From Escherichia phage phi456, in sequence record OR339795: DNA of 64,000 nucleotides; one strand, given 5' to 3'. This document shows, in pieces, positions 2,657 to 19,268 of the stretch. Below the pieces are notes generated by a model. The model was not told the origin of the DNA. It did not search any database and worked only from the letters and a program-made list of their open reading frames with translations. The translations under genes were made by a program, and so were the position numbers. How positions within the stretch are numbered: position 1 is the first letter of the stretch; every line of letters starts with the position of its first letter.

Positions 2657-2825
2657 GTATTTTTAAGTCGCGAATGCTATCTTTTCGCATCATATTGACC
2701 TTTTAATCGTTCAGGCTTATAGTTTCGCCGTCGTAGCAAATTCTGCGACCGGGTTTAGCAGCCTGAATGATTGTGCGGACAGCCGCAGATATCCGATATT
2801 GCGGTATTTTTGTGTCCGTAAAACC

Positions 2826-2905
2826 GCGTTACGCCCAAATTATGGTGGGGCGTGATGGGGAGGCTTCGGCCTGCTGGTTTCACAATCGCCAGTCTGCTAA
2901 CCCCG
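2826..2905 (+). ncRNA. c4: candidate c4-like antisense RNA region of immI
   Basis: Position between Op51-like site and icd; stem cgccc/gggcg (2832-2852) and aggc-UUCG-gcct tetraloop hairpin (2861-2872); boundaries not determined. Confidence 0.25.
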
Positions 2906-2970
2906 TCACGTCCTGCCACCTGTTTAGCAGCGGGTAGCAGGTTGTTAAACCTGATTGTGAGGCCGTAACT

Positions 2971-3192: not shown

Positions 3193-4223
3193 AAAAACCT
3201 CTCGTCACCCGTAATGAAATAGCCGAAGCGATCGCCCTGCATACAACCTGTATGCCGACACGGGAGATCCCCGGCGCAATTGCTAACTATTTCATGATAA
3301 CCAGACGTTTTTATACCCGAACAGATAAGGCTGTGATCAGCAGGCTACTGATAGCCGAGATCAGGGATTATTTGATTGAACAAGGACGTCTACGTTACGC
3401 AACAGTGGCAGCAGAAATGAGAAAGGAGGCACATAGAATGACCGGTAATAATTTAAATGTTGAAAAACCAGCACCTGTTGCTTCAGCTACGCCAGCACCA
3501 GCCCTGAATGTCATCTCCAACACCGGAGACACAATCGACAGCCAAACATTGTTGAAGATGGTCAATGAGGCACGGAAATTATGTAGCGAAAAACCAGTTC
3601 GCAACAATGATTTCATTGCCAGAGTTAAGGATGAGCTTGAAGGAGAAACCTACGAAATTTTCGTAGGTCAAAAAAACGGCGCAGAAATAGATATTATAAC
3701 CATGACCTACAAACAAGCCCTGCGAGTTGCCGCGCGCGAGTCAAAAGCGGTCCGCCGTTCGCTGATCGACAAACTGGAAGAATTACAGCAGGCAAACTCC
3801 CCTACCCCATCGATCCCCCAGACATTACCAGAAGCCCTACGCCTGGCTGCCGAGTTAGCAGAACAGAAAATGCAGTTGGAACAACAGCTGGTGGCCGCAG
3901 CCCCTAAAGTCGATTTTGCCGACCGGGTATCAGTGGCCAATGGAATCCTGATCGGGAACTTTGCAAAGGTCGTTGGACTTAAGCAAAACGCCCTTTTCTC
4001 ATGGTTGCGCCAGAACGGCATTCTCATGGCTTTTGGAGCGCGCAAAAACGTACCGCGCCAACAGTACATCAACGCCGGGTATTTCACGGTGAAAGAGGTG
4101 GTGCTGGATGATGAAAATGGCTACCAGATACGGCTGACGCCCCAATTAACGGGTAAAGGCCAGCAGTGGTTAACTCGCAAGCTACTTGATGCTGGTTTGT
4201 TAAAACCAGTAGCAATAGGTTAA
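3189..4223 (+). CDS. ant1: antirepressor Ant1 (ANT/KilA-C C-terminal domain)
   Basis: 344 aa; C-terminal PKVDFADRVS...GNFAKVVGLKQN...GYFTVKE motif of phage antirepressor C-domain; immI synteny. Confidence 0.7.
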   Translation: MKKPLVTRNEIAEAIALHTTCMPTREIPGAIANYFMITRRFYTRTDKAVISRLLIAEIRDYLIEQGRLRYATVAAEMRKEAHRMTGNNLNVEKPAPVASATPAPALNVISNTGDTIDSQTLLKMVNEARKLCSEKPVRNNDFIARVKDELEGETYEIFVGQKNGAEIDIITMTYKQALRVAARESKAVRRSLIDKLEELQQANSPTPSIPQTLPEALRLAAELAEQKMQLEQQLVAAAPKVDFADRVSVANGILIGNFAKVVGLKQNALFSWLRQNGILMAFGARKNVPRQQYINAGYFTVKEVVLDDENGYQIRLTPQLTGKGQQWLTRKLLDAGLLKPVAIG

Positions 4224-4234
4224 CAAAAGAAAAA

Positions 4235-4261
4235 ACCTGCCAGCTAACTGGCAGGTTTCTG
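4235..4261 (+). terminator. rho-independent terminator after ant
   Basis: Hairpin acctgccag-ctaa-ctggcaggt followed by tttct. Confidence 0.55.
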
Positions 4262-4300
4262 AGCAGATCGTCCAACCCGATCTGGATCGAGTCAGAAAAA

Positions 4301-4317
4301 TTTGCTCTAATAAATTT
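4301..4317 (+). promoter_or_regulatory. C1 operator-like site (Op53-like) in front of kilA-repL
   Basis: tttgctctaataaattt, 16/17 match to the C1 operator consensus, about 70 bp upstream of kilA. Confidence 0.65.
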
Positions 4318-4386
4318 CGTTTTCTAAGTGCAAAGAATCACCATTTCGAGCTGGTGATTGAAGGTTGATGCAAATTTGGAGAAAAA

Positions 4387-5187
4387 ATGCAACAAACATT
4401 CAATGCGGATATGAATATATCAAACCTTCATCAAAATGTCGATCCTTCAACCACTCTGCCCGTTATTTGTGGTGTTGAAATTACGACCGACCGCGCTGGC
4501 CGTTACAACCTTAATGCTCTACACAGAGCGAGCGGACTCGGTGCCCATAAAGCGCCAGCTCAATGGCTAAGAACGCTGTCAGCTAAACAGCTCATCGAAG
4601 AGCTTGAAAAAGAAACTATGCAGAATTGCATAGTTTCGTTCGAAGGCCGTGGCGGCGGCACTTTTGCCCATGAATTGCTCGCTGTGGAGTACGCAGGCTG
4701 GATTTCTCCCGCGTTTCGGCTGAAGGTAAACCAGACATTTATCGACTATCGAGCTGGAAGATTACAACCTGCTATTCCGCAGAGTCTCCCTGAAGCTCTC
4801 CGTTTGGCTGCCGACCTGGCAGAGCAAAAGCAACGGCTGGAGCAAAAAATGCTTATGGATGCACCTAAAGTCGAATTCGCCGAACGCGTTGCTACCGCCA
4901 GCGGGGTTCTAATCGGCAACTATGCCAAAGTGCTCGGCCTGGGCCAAAACTATCTCTTCACTTGGTTGCGTGATAACGGAATTCTGATCGCAACCGGTGA
5001 ACGCAGGAACGTCCCCAAACAAGAATACATATCCCGTGGGTACTTCACCCTCAAAGAAACCGTGATCGATACAAGCAATGGAAGCAGGATTTCTTTCACG
5101 ACTCGTATAACCGGTAAAGGTCAGCAGTGGCTTATGAAGCGATTGCTTGATGCTGGTGTGCTGGTACCTGTCGCGGCAACGCGCTAA
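4387..5187 (+). CDS. kilA: KilA (KilA-N domain plus ANT C-domain)
   Basis: 266 aa; C-terminal ANT-like domain; sits directly upstream of a RepL-sized ORF, as in the P1 lytic replicon. Confidence 0.65.
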   Translation: MQQTFNADMNISNLHQNVDPSTTLPVICGVEITTDRAGRYNLNALHRASGLGAHKAPAQWLRTLSAKQLIEELEKETMQNCIVSFEGRGGGTFAHELLAVEYAGWISPAFRLKVNQTFIDYRAGRLQPAIPQSLPEALRLAADLAEQKQRLEQKMLMDAPKVEFAERVATASGVLIGNYAKVLGLGQNYLFTWLRDNGILIATGERRNVPKQEYISRGYFTLKETVIDTSNGSRISFTTRITGKGQQWLMKRLLDAGVLVPVAATR

Positions 5188-5216
5188 CAAACGTAGTAAG
5201 AACCACCAGCATTGTA

Positions 5217-6062
5217 ATGCTGGCTAAAGTCACTTTCCTGAGCTGTATAACGATGAGCGATTTTACTTTTTCTGGCTATGAATTGGCCTGCTTTGTAACA
5301 CACTCCGGTCTATCCCGTAGCGCCGGGCATATCCTGTCGCAATGTGCAAATCTCGCGGCAACAACCAGTGAATACTTCATTCACAAGCCTCACCGCCTGA
5401 TCGCGGCAGAAACTGGTTATAGCCAATCAACCGTCGTTCGTGCATTCCGTGAAGCTGTAAACAAAGGAATTCTGTCTGTAGAGATTGTTATCGGCGATCA
5501 CCGTGAACGTCGCGCTAACCTGTACCGGTTTACACCATCATTTTTGGCCTTCGCACAACAAGCCAAAAATGCGCTGATTGAAAGCAAATTAAAGATCTCT
5601 TCAGCGGCAACCAAGGTTAAAGCTGTTCTCGCTAAGACATTGGCTTTATTTAATTTTTTATCCACACCCCCATGTCAAAATGATACCCCCTCCCCCTGTC
5701 AGGATGACGTGGCAATAAAGAATAAGAAGTCACAAGTTAAAAAAACAGAAAGATCAGTTTCCGGCGGTGCCGGAACGACCAGACTCAAAAAATTGACTTC
5801 ATGGATCGCTGAGGCAAAAGCAAAGGCTGACAATCTGCGGTTATCCAAAAAACGCGCTCAAAAACATGAGTTCAAGCAGAAAGTAGAGGCGACAGCGCGG
5901 AAATATGCTTACCTGAAGAACAAGCGTTCTCCTGATATTGGCGGGGTATCAAACTTCGATAATCTGCCGCATTGCATGACGGTAAACGAAGCTCTTAATG
6001 CGGTTTTAGCCAAAAATAAAGATAACGAACAATGGGGTATACCGGCAGGATTCAGAGGGTGA
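5217..6062 (+). CDS. repL: lytic replication protein RepL
   Basis: 281-aa ORF immediately after kilA; size and position as P1 repL. Confidence 0.65.
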   Translation: MLAKVTFLSCITMSDFTFSGYELACFVTHSGLSRSAGHILSQCANLAATTSEYFIHKPHRLIAAETGYSQSTVVRAFREAVNKGILSVEIVIGDHRERRANLYRFTPSFLAFAQQAKNALIESKLKISSAATKVKAVLAKTLALFNFLSTPPCQNDTPSPCQDDVAIKNKKSQVKKTERSVSGGAGTTRLKKLTSWIAEAKAKADNLRLSKKRAQKHEFKQKVEATARKYAYLKNKRSPDIGGVSNFDNLPHCMTVNEALNAVLAKNKDNEQWGIPAGFRG

Positions 6063-6112
6063 TAGATTGCTCTAATCTGGAGTCACCTGGCGTTTTCAGT
6101 TTGAGGTCGGAG

Positions 6113-6358
6113 ATGCAATCTGATTTTTTACAGTTAGCGATCGCTTTTGCAGGATATGTTTGTATTGGCTTCTGTGTATACATGATCAGCCGAAAAATGC
6201 TTGTCGATATCGACCGCAAAGAACAAGCAGAGGAGATCTTAGTATGGATTTTCTTTGGCGCGGTCTGGCCATTAGGGATCATGTTTGCTGCAACATTTCT
6301 TCTGATGTGGATATTCACCCTTCCAGGTGATTTCTATAGAAAAAAAGCCAGACATTGA
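6113..6358 (+). CDS. small membrane protein
   Basis: ATG at 6113 with GAGG RBS; two hydrophobic helices; the longer ORF 6032-6358 probably over-extends the N-terminus. Confidence 0.4.
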   Translation: MQSDFLQLAIAFAGYVCIGFCVYMISRKMLVDIDRKEQAEEILVWIFFGAVWPLGIMFAATFLLMWIFTLPGDFYRKKARH

Positions 6359-6439
6359 TACAATCGTTGCGGGTGCTTGAGGCTATCTGCTTCAGGCATT
6401 ACCCGAAAAGCAGATAGAAGAAAGCCCCAGATAACATTA

Positions 6440-6510
6440 CGCGTCCTGCAAGACGCTTAACATTAATCTGAGGCAATATCTATGCTTAGCATACGTAGAT
6501 TAGCCTCTTA
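6440..6510 (-). ncRNA. sok: candidate Sok-like antisense RNA
   Basis: Placed by analogy to hok/sok loci, antisense to the mok start region; boundaries unverified. Confidence 0.3.
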
Positions 6511-6688
6511 CCGACCAAAAGGTCAAGGAGAAGCAGGCTATGAAGCAGCAAAAAGCGATGTTAATCGCTCTGATCGTCATCTGTTTAACCGTCATTGTGA
6601 CGGCACTGGTAACGAGGAAAGACCTCTGCGAGGTACGAATCCGAACCGGCCAGACGGAGGTCACTGTCTTCACAGCCTACGAATCTGA
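6482..6688 (+). CDS. mok: Mok-like reading frame overlapping hok
   Basis: 68-aa ORF overlapping the hok frame in a different register. Confidence 0.5.
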   Translation: MLSIRRLASYRPKGQGEAGYEAAKSDVNRSDRHLFNRHCDGTGNEERPLRGTNPNRPDGGHCLHSLRI

Positions 6689-6695
6689 AAGGTAA
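6540..6695 (+). CDS. hok: Hok/Gef-family membrane toxin
   Basis: 51 aa MKQQKAMLIALIVICLTVIVTALVTRKDLCEVRIRTGQTEVTVFTAYESER; resembles Hok (hydrophobic helix, RK.LCE.R motif, AYES C-terminus); below the ORF-track length cut-off. Confidence 0.75.
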   Translation: MKQQKAMLIALIVICLTVIVTALVTRKDLCEVRIRTGQTEVTVFTAYESER

Positions 6696-6770
6696 GAGAC
6701 CTGGCGGGGAGAGATCCTCGCCACTCTTCGTGTGTCAGGTATCCTCAATGCACCCTTTCCTCTCCAAATA

Positions 6771-6797
6771 AAAAAGCTCCCGAAGGAGCTTTAAAAT
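6771..6797. terminator. bidirectional-type terminator hairpin
   Basis: agctcccgaaggagct hairpin flanked by A-run and T-rich sequence; ends the minus-strand structural operon and the hok transcript. Confidence 0.6.
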
Positions 6798-6811
6798 ACA
6801 AGGGATGACTC

Positions 6812-7321
6812 TTAATCCCACTCAATCCAGTTGTAGACGATACGAAGTGACGGGCGCACAGCGGCAGTCACATCTTCGGTACTAAAGTCGATTGCATCAC
6901 TGTAGATTTTGCAGTCCAACATTTCAATTGTTGTAGCAGCTTTTGTCACAGCGTTAACCCCGGAAGATTTGGATTCAGGGGTAGCAGCCATCGTGATATC
7001 AACATAGTCCTTCGCCGCAATGCGATCCTTGATGAACTGAAGAATATCGCCTTCGATAGTCTCCACGCACTGGACCTGGATTTCCCCAGAGTTTCGAATT
7101 GGTCCGTGCTGGTTGAACTTCACACCATTCGGACCATAGTCCTCCACATCCTCGCGGGTCATTTCAGGAATTTGCGACGTGCGAACCAGTACGCTGATAT
7201 CTTCATGGCCTGCAAAAGTGAGCTGGAATTCAGAAGATACCAGTCGTTCGCCTTTGGCCGCGTTGGCAGTATAGCGGCCCTTAATAAATTTACGGTTTCC
7301 CTTAGTGTTATTGTGCCCCAT
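6812..7321 (-). CDS. phage virion structural protein (tail tube or baseplate class)
   Basis: 169-aa ORF at the end of the structural operon; family not resolved. Confidence 0.4.
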   Translation of the reverse strand: MGHNNTKGNRKFIKGRYTANAAKGERLVSSEFQLTFAGHEDISVLVRTSQIPEMTREDVEDYGPNGVKFNQHGPIRNSGEIQVQCVETIEGDILQFIKDRIAAKDYVDITMAATPESKSSGVNAVTKAATTIEMLDCKIYSDAIDFSTEDVTAAVRPSLRIVYNWIEWD

Positions 7322-7332
7322 ATAAAATCCTT

Positions 7333-7914
7333 TTACTGGAACGCCCGAACAATATCGGAGCTGTTATATATCGAAGAACCGGTCAACTGGAGGTTGACGG
7401 TGTTTTTCAGGAAATGCCCATTGCTGTCCCTGGGCGCATCGAGATCGAAACTTATGTCCTGGATAGCGACATCAATGATGTTGATCCGGCGACCAATGTT
7501 TAGCGTCACACGCTCCGGGATTCGACCACCAATACTGGCATCTTTAAGTTCCGGGCTAATCATCGCTGACAATGCGGCGATAGCGCCTGAAACTTCAATG
7601 AATGGATTGTTCAAAGCAATGAAAGTTACAGGCAGCGTGAACGTCGGCGGAGTCCCCCCTTCCCAAACCATTAAGCTATTCCAACGGGCAACCGACGTTG
7701 TTTCAGTACCTACTTGCACAAAACCACCCAGAGCACCAGAAACAGATCCCATGGACATACCGGTAAACGGCGCTTCCCAATTCTGGGCCATGTTCATTGC
7801 CGCTCCCTGGCTGATATATCCGGTAACCTGGTACTGAGAGTTCGTTAAAGTAACTTTCAGATATGGCGATACACCGTCAGCCTGGCTGTAAACCCCATAA
7901 GCTATAGGAGCCAT
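7333..7914 (-). CDS. phage virion structural protein (tail-associated)
   Basis: 193-aa ORF, tightly packed in the structural operon. Confidence 0.4.
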   Translation of the reverse strand: MAPIAYGVYSQADGVSPYLKVTLTNSQYQVTGYISQGAAMNMAQNWEAPFTGMSMGSVSGALGGFVQVGTETTSVARWNSLMVWEGGTPPTFTLPVTFIALNNPFIEVSGAIAALSAMISPELKDASIGGRIPERVTLNIGRRINIIDVAIQDISFDLDAPRDSNGHFLKNTVNLQLTGSSIYNSSDIVRAFQ

Positions 7915-17239: not shown

Positions 17240-17566
17240 ATGACTAAAAATACTCGTTTTTCCCCCGAAGTCCGTCAACGGGCAGTTCGTATGGTTCTGG
17301 AAAGTCAGGGCGAATATGACTCACAATGGGCGGCAATTTGTTCCATTGCTCCAAAGATTGGCTGTACGCCAGAGACTCTGCGCGTCTGGGTTCGCCAGCA
17401 TGAGCGGGATACCGGGGGCGGTGATGGTGGGCTCACCACCGCTGAACGTCAGCGTCTGAAAGAGCTGGAGCGTGAAAATCGTGAACTGCGCCGCAGTAAC
17501 GATATCCTTCGCCAGGCTTCCGCTTATTTTGCGAAGGCGGAGTTCGACCGCCTCTGGAAAAAATGA
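17240..17566 (+). CDS. IS629-like OrfA
   Basis: 108 aa [19 protein letters not shown]... with leucine zipper; IS3-family OrfA. Confidence 0.85.
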
Positions 17567-18362
17567 TGCCACTGCTGGATAAGCTGCGTGAGCAGTACGG
17601 GGTCGGACCGGTATGCAGCGAACTGCATATTGCCCCGTCAACGTATTACCACTGTCAGCAACAGCGACATCATCCGGATAAACGCAGTGCCCGTGCGCAG
17701 CGCGATGACTGGCTGAAGAAAGAGATACTGCGCGTATACGATGAAAATCATCAGGTGTACGGTGTGCGTAAAGTCTGGCGTCAGTTGTTACGGGAAGGTA
17801 TCAGGGTGGCCAGATGCACTGTGGCACGTCTCATGGCGGTTATGGGACTTGCCGGTGTTCTCCGGGGTAAAAAGGTCCGTACGACCATCAGCCGGAAAGC
17901 CGTTGCCGCAGGCGACCGCGTAAACCGTCAGTTCGTGGCAGAACGTCCTGACCAGCTGTGGGTAGCTGATTTTACTTACGTCAGCACATGGCAGGGCTTC
18001 GTCTATGTGGCGTTCATCATTGATGTATTTGCCGGATACATCGTGGGGTGGCGAGTCTCATCGTCTATGGAAACGACATTCGTGCTGGATGCACTGGAGC
18101 AGGCGTTGTGGGCCCGCCGGCCGTCCGGCACAATCCACCACAGTGATAAAGGTTCTCAGTATGTATCGCTGGCCTACACGCAGCGGCTTAAGGAAGCCGG
18201 CTTACTGGCCTCAACAGGAAGTACTGGTGACTCGTATGACAACGCGATGGCGGAGAGCATCAATGGTCTTTACAAAGCGGAGGTAATACACCGTAAGAGT
18301 TGGAAAAACCGGACAGAAGTGGAACTGGCCACACTAACGTGGGTGGACTGGTGGATTTGCCC

Positions 18363-19268
18363 CTATATTTCCAGACACCTGTTATCACTTAACCCATTAC
18401 TGGCCTGCTGCCGCAGATATTCCCGTGGCGAGCGATAACCCAGTGCACTATGCGGATGCCATTCGTTATAATGCTCGAACGCCTCTGCAAGGTTCTTTGC
18501 TGCCGTTAACCCGTCTGGTTTAGGCATGATACTGATGTAGTCACGCTTTATCGTTTTCACGAAGCTCTCTGCTATGCCGTTACTCTCTGGACTCCGCACC
18601 GCCGTGTTCTTCGGTTCAAGCCCCAACATCCGGGCAAACTGCCGTGTTTCATTAGCCCGGTAGCATGAACCATTATCCGTCAGCCACTCTACTGGAGACG
18701 CCGGAAGCTCGTTGCCGAAGCGGCGTTCCACCGCTCCCAGCATTACGTCCTGTACTGTTTCACTGTCGAAGCCGCCCGTAGTGACTGCCCAGTGCAGTGC
18801 CTCACGGTCACAGCAGTCCAGCGCGAACGTGACTCGCAGTTTTTCTCCGTTATCACAGCGGAACTCGAACCCGTCAGAGCACCATCGTTGATTGCTTTCT
18901 TTCACGGCCACTTTGCCAGTATGTGCCCGTTTCGATGGCGGTACAGCGGTTTTTCGCTCAAGCAACAGCGCATTCTGGCGCATGATCCGGTAAACACGTT
19001 TGGCATTGATCGCAGGCATACCATCAAGTTCGGCCTGTCTGCGAAGCAGCGCCCATACCCGACGATAACCATACGTGGGCAGCTCTCCGATAACATGGTG
19101 TATACGGAGAAGCACATCCGTATCATCTGAGTGACGGCTGCGGCGACCATCTTTCCAGTCATCGGTTCGTCTGAGAATTACGTGCAACTGCGCACGCGAC
19201 ACCCGGAGACAACGGCTGACTAAGCTTACTCCCCATCCCCGGGCAATAAGGGCGCGTGCGCTATCCAC
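18363..19268 (-). CDS. insD: IS2 transposase OrfB
   Basis: 301-aa DDE transposase recognised as IS2 InsD. Confidence 0.9.

Follow-up and report, generated by a model that had tools for sequence, protein, structure and literature searches.

We found an intact hok/mok/sok type I toxin–antitoxin locus at positions 6371–6758 (+ strand) of the window, the 64,000-nt stretch of Escherichia phage phi456 (record OR339795) analysed here; sequence comparison confirmed this identity. Taken together, the evidence makes it highly probable that the locus is an intact member of the hokD/hokW subgroup, borne on a cassette of a P1-like prophage and acting by the paradigm of plasmid R1, with plasmid stabilisation as its most likely role. 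The locus is already known, being annotated in hundreds of related plasmids. It had initially been taken as missed by an open reading frame track; the ORF is indeed small, but public annotation already calls it hokD (the PGAP name, given in plasmids 99.8–100% identical across the locus) or MokW. Public records mark the toxin CDS alone and leave sok, mok, tac and fbi unannotated; the sok RNA gene, mok and tac/fbi mapped here could extend this toxin-only annotation. In the searchable literature on hok in P1-like/IncY elements we found no functional study, only a descriptive note (Venturini 2019, PMC6906374). A majority lineage of natural P1-like phage-plasmids, among them carriers of mcr-1 and ESBL genes, bears this complete module, which is absent from reference P1, and the module may aid plasmid persistence without selection, or lysis behaviour. 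Its significance is small, and no new question on hok/sok biology is opened.

Identity of the locus and its reading frames

The Rfam sok/hok leader model, RF01794, matched positions 6371–6545 of the + strand over its complete length (model positions 1–157 of 157) with 114.3 bits (cutoff 59, E = 3e-25), and the transcript start proposed in the initial annotation proved exact. Every feature which that annotation had listed for a hok/mok/sok-type locus was recovered where it had been placed or within a few bases (Table 1). Alignment to reference loci, which had been suggested as a check, revealed the same architecture in all of them, namely in the R1-type, IncI2, Klebsiella IncF and 933W hokW loci and in 30-odd chromosomal loci; the distant plasmid references comprised one IncI2 locus and two IncF loci.

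Table 1. Features of the hok/mok/sok locus and of the cassette that carries it (window coordinates)
Feature	Position	Strand	Basis or detail
693-bp cassette replacing rlfA-rlfB-pmgF (1826 bp) of canonical P1	6077–6769		BLAST versus NC_005856
81-aa hydrophobic ORF, first gene of the cassette	6113–6358	+	hypothetical WP_001369095.1 in an identical plasmid
Predicted hok promoter	6337–6364	+	TAGAAA, 16 nt, TG-n-TACAAT; promoter scan
Predicted hok mRNA, full-length form	6371–6758	+	5' end from RF01794, model position 1 = 6371
tac element, extreme 5' end of hok mRNA, GGGTGCTTGAGG = GGGUGCUUGAGG	6371–6382	+	pairs with 6743–6755 (MFE)
Inner stem-loop of 5' hairpin, CTATCTGCTT/AAGCAGATAG = CUAUCUGCUU/AAGCAGAUAG	6383–6417	+	6383–6392 with 6408–6417
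Predicted sok antisense RNA gene, ~71 nt	6420–6490	-	positional homology to annotated sokW (L002 1054–1124)
sokT/mok initiation hairpin	6470–6507	+	GAGG 6470–6473, mok AUG 6482–6484, closed by GAGGC/GCCUC
mok reading frame	6482–6688	+	68 codons; starts 58 nt before hok, in another frame
Predicted sok promoter	6497–6526	-	-35 TTGACC (6526–6521), 18-nt spacer, -10 TAATCT (6502–6497), +1 G 6490
hok toxin gene	6540–6695	+	51 codons + stop; Shine-Dalgarno AAGGAG 6525–6530
GC-rich hairpin right after hok stop	6702–6723	+	fold -16.3 kcal/mol
fbi (fold-back inhibition) element, CCUCAAuGCACCC	6743–6755	+	12 bp with tac in MFE, U6749 bulged
Hairpin AAAGCUCC-CGAA-GGAGCUUU on P1 backbone	6773–6792		T-run good on minus strand only

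Both the 51-codon Hok frame and the 68-codon Mok frame exist as originally read. The hok ORF matched the Pfam profile HOK_GEF (PF01848) over its full length (profile positions 1–42 of 42; 78.7 bits, cutoff 22, E = 2.4e-22) as well as phrog_251, 'MokW-like host killing' (E = 5e-32), and it contains the TRKxLCE motif. An inactivating change, which would have spoken against a working toxin, was not found in the frame, and 47 of the 51 residues are shared with HokW, which is toxic. The window Hok scored under the curated cutoffs of the NCBIfam Hok and HokA HMMs, so the PGAP name hokD was presumably given via a sequence-identity rule rather than by these models.

The mok ORF matched phrog_37205 (E = 8e-21), and its GAGG Shine-Dalgarno sequence lies 8 nt before its AUG. 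The placement of hok inside mok holds only in that the two overlap; hok, read in the other frame, ends 7 nt beyond the end of mok. Translation of hok via mok is expected of the family, and we infer the same coupling here. The mok initiation region folds locally into the sokT/mok hairpin (-13.8 kcal/mol, z = -3.3), which is the third helix of the RF01794 consensus and which the loci of 933W and of the R1 type form as well.

The predicted antisense gene and hok promoter

An antisense promoter had been anticipated on the minus strand near 6500–6540, and a candidate, homologous to the -10 box that was mutated in sokW, was indeed present there. Homology to both sokW and the R1-type locus led us to it; its -10 matches 3 of 6 consensus positions, and a generic sigma-70 scan, which did find the hok promoter, reported none at this place. 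As seen from the alignment, the window -10 corresponds to TAACCT of sokW and to TATCCT of the R1-type locus. TAACCT is the box that was replaced in the promoter-less sokW mutant (primers YO-421/422; PMC8621323). The predicted -35 overlaps the hok Shine-Dalgarno sequence. The predicted Sok would consist of a 16-nt single-stranded 5' tail over the mok AUG, a terminator hairpin (6474–6425) and UUUCUUCU, and its computed fold is stable (-30.3 kcal/mol, z = -5.3).

The -10 of the predicted hok promoter ends 6 nt before G6371, and a -10-like hexamer is likewise placed in other hok loci. The stop codon of the 81-aa ORF (TGA, 6356–6358) provides the TG of this extended -10.

Ends and folding of the hok mRNA

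Taking the 398-nt R1 mRNA as a guide, we let the hok mRNA end a few nucleotides past fbi; in the R1-type locus (L052) the equivalent span is 398 nt. The primary transcript may reach ~6797 or further. A canonical terminator on the + strand directly past fbi is absent in the window, unlike in the lambdoid relatives. The strong 3' hairpin assigned to the locus by the initial annotation does exist, but it stands on the P1 backbone, and the 3' elements proper to the family are the post-stop hairpin and fbi. We rejected it as part of the hok module, since P1 homology resumes at 6770. Its sequence is well suited to intrinsic termination of the bplB operon, which converges on the minus strand; for hok it could act no more than weakly, as the + strand has only UUU, followed by AAAAU.

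The 5' tac element and the stem adjoining it are present and fold as originally described. The predicted pairing of the 5' and 3' ends is likewise part of the minimum-energy structure and covaries. Compared with shuffled sequences, the fold of the full-length mRNA had z = -8.8, and none of 100 shuffles was as stable. When the structure was scored over 38 diverse loci, 84.2% of cells were paired, against 39–43% in slid controls, and the covariation score was 0.192, against 0.07–0.09 in slid controls and reached by 0 of 500 shuffles; the structure came from the window sequence, which biases these comparisons in its favour over the slid controls. In the leader, helices 2, 4 and 5 were 85–95% paired; helix 2, the 5' inner stem, reached 91.6%, with three pairs changed on both sides. 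The post-stop hairpin (helix 18) was 88.3% paired, with both sides changed in 6 of its 9 pairs. It is presumed to halt exonucleolytic trimming from the 3' side and so to form the 3' terminus of the mRNA in its truncated, active form.

The tac element is near-invariant over the 38 loci. The one position that covaries forms a pair with fbi (alignment columns 4/429) that is U–A in 20 loci, C–G in 15, U–G in 2 and other in 1. Our alignment (A1) displaces the inner half of fbi by one column in loci without the bulged U, so that the inner tac–fbi pairs were scored as 'other' in several cases; for these pairs we used per-locus duplexes, and every locus tested formed its own tac–fbi duplex, at -14.6 to -25.6 kcal/mol. 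BLAST homology to lambdoid hokW stops exactly at fbi. In the full-length fold a 3' segment pairs with the region of the mok AUG, which matches the competition that Thisted and colleagues named in the title of their 1994 paper.

The isolated 5' 58 nt fold as the Rfam tac hairpin. In the truncated RNA (6371–6726), however, the 5' hairpin of the MFE structure differs from the 'active' fold of Rfam, with only local segments in agreement, so showing the refolding step takes more than thermodynamic prediction.

The cassette and its distribution

Judged by its sequence, the window element is a P1-like phage-plasmid (Punavirus, IncY). Homology to P1 (NC_005856) stops at 6076 and resumes at 6770 in BLAST, and the backbone is collinear with P1 on both sides (98% identity over 4800–6076 and 6770–7900). 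The C4 RNA with its targets lies at 2717–2923, and phd-doc, at 43368–43966, is 99–100% identical to that of P1. The position originally given for the locus, between the lytic replicon and the structural operon, was borne out, with repL upstream and bplB, convergent, downstream. Besides hok/sok the cassette contains the 81-aa membrane ORF, which matches phrog_3772 (function unassigned; E = 3e-54) and gave no match in a Pfam search.

The same substitution has been described for pSvP1, pTZ20_1P and pJIE250-3 (Venturini 2019, PMC6906374). We found the intact cassette in 227 plasmid records, out of 516 records with P1 repL, and it is 99–100% conserved over hundreds of plasmids from several genera. 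In many sister plasmids IS186B splits the cassette between hok and fbi, within the post-stop hairpin, as also noted in PMC6906374; in one locus (L057) the insertion falls at 6707–6717 in window numbering. The window copy has no IS186B in this hairpin, which is an insertion hot-spot in its sisters. Some P1-like plasmids keep only the first 147 nt of the cassette. The repL–bplB interval is a swap region, filled by rlfA-rlfB-pmgF, by the hok cassette, or by a 198-aa ORF together with a sok remnant.

Proposed mechanism and role

The steps of the mechanism we propose are modelled on the R1 paradigm and drawn from structure and homology, the fold and its covariation having been computed here. A constitutive promoter would produce a stable hok mRNA from G6371. 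In the full-length RNA, tac would pair with fbi and the mok start region with 6723–6742, and because of these pairings the RNA would, we propose, be neither translated nor bound by Sok. Slow 3' trimming to the post-stop hairpin would strip fbi, let the 5' end form the tac hairpin and expose the sokT/mok hairpin. As long as the cell keeps the plasmid, Sok, ~71 nt long and unstable, would pair with the region where mok translation starts, and cleavage of the duplex would follow; dependence on RNase III has been established for the 87%-identical hokW–sokW locus (PMC8621323). Once Sok is no longer supplied, whether the plasmid is lost or transcription is shut off, mok would be translated, and hok with it by coupling, and the 51-aa Hok peptide would go to the inner membrane, so that the cell would be killed or arrested. 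Stabilisation of the low-copy plasmid prophage, beside phd-doc, is a plausible role for such a system. The splitting of the cassette by IS186B in many sister plasmids suggests that selection for intact regulation is possibly weak.

It is also possible, though we think it rather unlikely, that the same module serves mainly the lytic cycle: upon induction Sok would be lost, Hok would hit the membrane early, lysis would be advanced and more phage released. Such a role could coexist with plasmid stabilisation. The closest characterised relative, hokW–sokW of phage Sp5, acts in this way; SokW is gone after mitomycin C treatment, HokW precedes the endolysin by ~1 h, and deletion of the locus halves the phage yield (PMC8621323). 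The nearest DNA relatives of the module are, moreover, overwhelmingly prophage-borne, and the module lies directly downstream of the C1-repressed kilA–repL lytic operon and convergent with the late structural operon. The effect in Sp5 is, however, a modest, two-fold one, P1 owns a holin, an antiholin and an endolysin, canonical P1 manages without hok, and a low-copy plasmid is the classical setting of post-segregational killing.

The position of the cassette, behind a half-retained C1 operator (6066–6076) and between kilA–repL and the late operon that faces it, might even wire Hok expression to the lysis–lysogeny switch of P1, an idea that we consider distinctly unlikely. Read-through from the induced kilA–repL operon (P53) would then collide head-on with the sok promoter, and would yield 5'-extended hok RNAs unable to close the tac–fbi lock. 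If this were true, the module would be an induction-triggered lysis accessory like Sp5 HokW, instead of or besides an addiction module, and the IS186B insertions and sok-only remnants would represent different evolutionary settings of the switch.

A main role in abortive infection or exclusion, in which shut-off by an infecting phage would deplete Sok and Hok would kill the cell first, protecting sister lysogens, appears very unlikely. Phage-plasmids often carry defence cargo, which would fit such a role, but 3' trimming activates the hok mRNA of R1 slowly compared with a T4 cycle. With R1 hok/sok in the cell, the plating of T4 fell by 42% and its plaques shrank by about 85% (cited in PMC8621323), although this effect is weak and comes from a high-copy plasmid.

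Finally, we find it very improbable that the module, though structurally intact, makes no measurable contribution and is a selfish or decaying passenger kept via recombination into a variable region: the interval it occupies does accept alternative fillings, and in a considerable fraction of P1-like plasmids the cassette is IS186B-split or cut short, but all predicted functional elements are intact in the window and the cassette is highly conserved across plasmids and genera. This explanation likens the cassette to most chromosomal hok loci. The preference of IS186 for GC-rich hairpins of this kind, noted in part in PMC6906374 and reportedly also by Pedersen and Gerdes in 1999, means that frequent insertions need not signal absent selection. 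Plasmid stabilisation remains the role that we prefer.

Comparison with known systems

In the P1-like plasmids NZ_CP055201, pMCR-1-P3 (KX518745), MH422554 and pSvP1/pJIE250-3, the region 6300–6850 is 99–100% identical and occupies the same repL–bplB position; they show no difference of substance from the window.

The hokW–sokW locus of the Stx2 phages Sp5/933W is 86.5% identical to the window in DNA over 6359–6755, a span that opens with the -10 box and closes with fbi, and its toxin is 92% identical. It shares with the window tac, sokT, the post-stop hairpin and fbi, and its sok promoter position and sok of ~71 nt correspond to those predicted in the window. HokW is experimentally toxic, and hokW–sokW is a working pair of toxin and RNA antitoxin (PMC8621323). 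Relative to 933W the window has a 1-nt insertion, T6523 (GGTCAAGG in the window versus GG-CAAGG in 933W). As a result, mok is out of frame with hok in the window (offset 58), whereas in 933W and the hokD-type relatives it is in frame (offset 57); the predicted sok -35 likewise reads TTGACC where 933W has TTGCCT, and the spacer is 18 nt long instead of 17. The 933W/Sp5 host element is an integrated lambdoid phage and that of the window a plasmid prophage, and the downstream terminator context differs between the window and the hokW loci.

The HokD-type toxin of three loci (L007, L012 and L013) is ~94% identical to that of the window, which accounts for the PGAP name hokD. The K-12-type hokD loci (relF, prophage Qin; L012 and L013) lack tac, and in L013 the upstream sequence also departs from that of the hok leader and sok region, whereas the window copy is complete. 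Several chromosomal hok loci (for example L017) have IS186 past the hok stop, in contrast to the window copy.

For hok/sok (parB) of plasmid R1 we used as stand-in the R1-type locus (L052) on the IncFII plasmid NZ_CP035872. Its Hok is just 42% identical to the window toxin, and outside the conserved boxes it is too dissimilar for BLASTN. Its tac, GGCGCUUGAGG, pairs with fbi, GAAGCGCC, with C–G where tac/fbi of the window has U–A. The architecture and the order of the elements are nevertheless those of the window, with mok out of frame at 58, a hairpin past the hok stop and a match to RF01794.

The toxin gene and its overlap with mok

The open reading frame (ORF) at 6540-6695 encodes a full-length Hok/Gef protein (Pfam PF01848, 78.7 bits versus a cutoff of 22) and matches phrog_251, 'MokW-like host killing'. 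The 51-codon and 68-codon frames of the initial annotation are both present, but its placement of hok inside mok needs a minor correction, as the two overlap without nesting. We compared the toxin with R1-type Hok of the IncFII plasmid NZ_CP035872 (locus L052, its Hok protein equal to that of R1) and with HokW of Stx phage Sp5/933W; identity was 42% to the former and 47 of 51 residues to the latter, with all four differences from HokW in the C-terminal ten residues. No inactivating change was seen in the comparison with HokW, an inner-membrane protein that arrests growth on induction and is counteracted by SokW (Takada et al., PMC8621323).

Relative to hokW/hokD-type loci, the window has one extra T at 6523 (column 179 of alignment A1 of hok loci). 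With it, mok and hok are offset by 58 nt and read in different frames, the arrangement of R1-type loci. An offset of 57 nt in 933W, hokD-type and Photorhabdus loci makes 'Mok' there an N-terminally extended Hok.

Features of the hok locus and its surroundings
Feature	Position	Strand	Basis or remark
C4 antisense RNA and a1/b1 targets	2717-2923		Rfam
81-aa hydrophobic ORF	6113-6358	+	phrog_3772 (function unknown); without Pfam match
Predicted hok promoter	6337-6364	+	promoter scan; extended -10, TAGAAA-16-TGnTACAAT; -10 ends 6 nt before G6371
tac box (5' box) GGGUGCUUGAGG	6371-6382	+	RNA 5' end
5' stem	6383-6392 / 6408-6417	+	fold
Long hairpin	6424-6474	+	opposite strand reads as Sok terminator
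mok initiation hairpin	6470-6507	+	holds GAGG and mok AUG; closed by GAGGC/GCCUC; -13.8 kcal/mol
mok	6482-6688	+	68 codons; Shine-Dalgarno GAGG 6470-6473, AUG 6482
hok	6540-6695	+	51 codons; Shine-Dalgarno AAGGAG 6525-6530
GC-rich hairpin after hok stop	6702-6723	+	-16.3 kcal/mol
fbi (fold-back inhibition) box CCUCAAuGCACCC	6743-6755	+	3' of GC-rich hairpin
Predicted sok promoter	6526-6497	-	alignment to sokW and R1-type locus
Predicted Sok RNA	~6490-6420	-	alignment to sokW

The hok mRNA and its predicted fold

The whole Rfam model RF01794 matches 6371-6545 of the plus strand (114.3 bits versus 59, E 3e-25). Named 'sok' antitoxin, the model matches the hok mRNA strand, and its final positions are the hok AUG. 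RF01794 as built thus models the hok leader, not the antisense RNA, and strand calls from it need care. Because the model runs in the sense direction and ends at the hok AUG, the match places the 5' end of hok mRNA at G6371, exactly the start proposed initially, and the tac element and adjoining stem are both present and fold. The -10 of the predicted promoter has a similar hexamer as counterpart, in the matching position, in other hok loci.

The fold of 6371-6797 is far more stable than dinucleotide shuffles (z = -8.8); the hok locus is real, far beyond chance. In the full-length minimum-energy structure the tac box pairs with the fbi box over 12 bp, with U6749 bulged, and the mok start region pairs with 6723-6742. 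The mok initiation hairpin forms likewise in 933W and R1-type loci.

For comparison we drew on 47 hok loci from species-representative genomes and on distant plasmid loci. The R1-type locus, an IncI2 locus, a Klebsiella IncF locus, 933W hokW and 30-odd chromosomal loci share the architecture seen in the window. The Rfam leader model was found in 10 of 10 complete loci submitted; no match came from two K-12-type hokD loci without a tac box, nor from a plasmid locus adjoining an ISKpn28 transposase gene. When the structure, taken from one aligned sequence (the window's own), was mapped onto 38 complete aligned loci, 84.2% of positions were paired, versus 39-43% with partners slid by 1-3 columns, and the covariation score was 0.192, versus 0.07-0.09 in the slid controls (none of 500 shuffles reached 0.192). 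The clearest covariation signal is a tac/fbi pair ~380 nt apart (columns 4 and 429), which is U-A in 20 loci, C-G in 15, U-G in two and unpaired in one; six of the nine pairs of the hairpin after the hok stop changed on both sides. In loci without the bulge, the alignment of the inner half of fbi is off by one column, a gap covered by tac-fbi duplex energies computed per locus (-14.6 to -25.6 kcal/mol). The suggested fold-back pairing of the two ends is thus borne out by both the fold and covariation.

Photorhabdus genomes hold many hok loci, two of them in tandem on one contig of Photorhabdus temperata (856-1214 and 1485-1832 of L030), and at the covarying position their tac/fbi boxes have C-G. 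Tiny contigs assembled for two unrelated genera, Acinetobacter idrijaensis (275 bp) and Xanthomonas pisi (431 bp), encode Hok segments with 100% identity to that of the window, most simply explained by E. coli or phage DNA contaminating the assemblies.

The strong 3' hairpin of the initial annotation exists, at 6773-6792, but we rejected it as the hok 3' end, since it is P1 backbone. Its T-run is on the minus strand, and it primarily serves to terminate the convergent bplB operon. Directly 3' of fbi the window has no terminator of the kind present in lambdoid relatives. Stable full-length hok RNA would be expected to end a few nucleotides past 6755, wherever transcription stops, because the equivalent span in the R1-type locus is 398 nt.

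The predicted sok antisense gene

The minus strand at the sok promoter and start reads ctccTTGACCttttggtcggtaagaggcTAATCTacgtatG. The aligned 933W sequence is ctccTTGCCTttcggcacgtaagaggcTAACCTacatgtG, in which the G is the annotated first base of sokW RNA; that RNA ends after GGGGCUUUU. In the promoter-less sokW mutant, exactly the TAACCT box was replaced, using primers YO-421/422 (Takada et al., PMC8621323), and TATCCT of the R1-type locus aligns with it. Alignment with the sokW start, the mutated box and the R1-type TATCCT places the predicted promoter and RNA as tabulated, giving a candidate for the antisense promoter anticipated near 6500-6540. In the predicted Sok, 16 unpaired nucleotides at the 5' end would cover the mok AUG and be followed by a hairpin and UUUCUUCU (-30.3 kcal/mol, z -5.3). 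The -10 box matches only three of six consensus positions, and a generic promoter scan of the window did not flag this promoter; its activity is inferred. T6523 changes the -35 box (TTGACC, versus TTGCCT in 933W) and the spacer (18 versus 17 nt), and would improve the -35 box.

The cassette and its variants

The window is a P1-like phage-plasmid. As proposed, hok lies between the lytic replicon (kilA and repL, upstream) and the structural operon (bplB-pmgG-gp21, downstream on the minus strand, convergent). The same element has phd-doc: tblastn with the P1 protein sequences matched Phd and Doc at 43368-43966 (100% and 99% identity). ARAGORN found no tRNA genes in the whole window (1-64000). Reference P1 has three, which may be absent from the phi456 variant or lie outside the window. 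Overlapping 108-aa and 291-aa ORFs at 17240-18438 (+), with an ALIL frameshift pseudoknot at 17521-17637 (121 bits), resemble an insertion sequence of the IS3 family within the phage-plasmid backbone. A full-length Rfam match to the Hfq-binding sRNA isrC (24259-24380, minus strand; 78 bits versus a gathering score of 39) adjoins a 1165-aa minus-strand ORF.

Compared with reference P1 (NC_005856), 693 bp at 6077-6769 stand in place of 1826 bp with rlfA, rlfB and pmgF, between flanks (4800-6076 and 6770-7900) of 98% identity. The left junction falls inside the P1 C1 operator Orlf/Op55 (window 6066-6082), where ATTGCTCTAAT is kept and the last 6 nt differ from P1. The 81-aa ORF and the hok module make up the cassette; the stop codon of the ORF and the extended -10 of the hok promoter overlap. 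Lambdoid hokW is homologous from the -10 box through the final fbi base (6359-6755).

P1-type repL occurs in 516 PLSDB plasmids. In 227 of them 6300-6850 is essentially complete, often with 99.8-100% identity, and 449 records have 80% or more of the module. The PGAP name of the gene is 'hokD, type I toxin-antitoxin system toxin' in the identical plasmids listed, and GenBank MH422554 annotates it as MokW. Venturini et al. (PMC6906374) describe the same substitution in pSvP1, pTZ20_1P and pJIE250-3. The cassette of the window is thus an intact copy of one already known and annotated.

An element of the IS4 family interrupts the hok cassette in many P1-like plasmids. Venturini et al. identify it as IS186B and report the insertion with direct repeat GGATCTCTCC, the reverse complement of window 6708-6717. 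The same insertion is seen in L057 (NZ_OQ534122, transposase element at 3860-5196, 11-bp overlap at window 6707-6717): it interrupts the GC-rich hairpin 3' of hok, with a ~11-bp duplication, and splits hok from fbi. L057 also lacks 6104-6240, part of the 81-aa ORF. The same IS end is found at the equivalent hairpin of a chromosomal locus, L017. The insertions may go back to a single inherited event or to recurrent hits on a hot-spot. A further variant, L058 (NZ_CP067237, 2501-3409), keeps only 6359-6505 (147 nt; breakpoint at window 6505), with the hok leader, sok RNA sequence and sok -10 and without the sok -35; a 198-aa ORF (phrog_7522, function unknown) replaces hok. Some P1-like plasmids share this truncated state, which would be a sok-only remnant. 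Since intact, IS-split and remnant fillings occur, the repL-bplB interval is a recombination hot-spot.

Function

The initial observation is confirmed and its interpretation supported, apart from the small changes made above to the 3' end and the hok/mok overlap; the feature was already known and annotated. Its role is less certain than its mechanism. Post-segregational killing would fit a low-copy plasmid prophage, one already carrying phd-doc. A role in the lytic cycle is a live alternative, as the closest studied relative, hokW-sokW, works there: induction brings loss of Sok, early appearance of Hok and a two-fold rise in phage release (PMC8621323). The locus directly follows the C1-controlled kilA-repL operon, a position that would allow induction-coupled hok expression, which seems unlikely. 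R1 hok/sok weakly excludes T4 (work cited in PMC8621323); phage exclusion is improbable as the main role here. In the literature on hok in P1-like elements we found no tests of stabilisation, lysis or exclusion. Stabilisation of the plasmid prophage, alongside phd-doc, is the most likely role, and we are highly confident that the locus works by the hok/sok mechanism. In R1 hok mRNA the pairing arrangement predicted for the full-length RNA blocks translation and Sok access, as established by the Gerdes laboratory.
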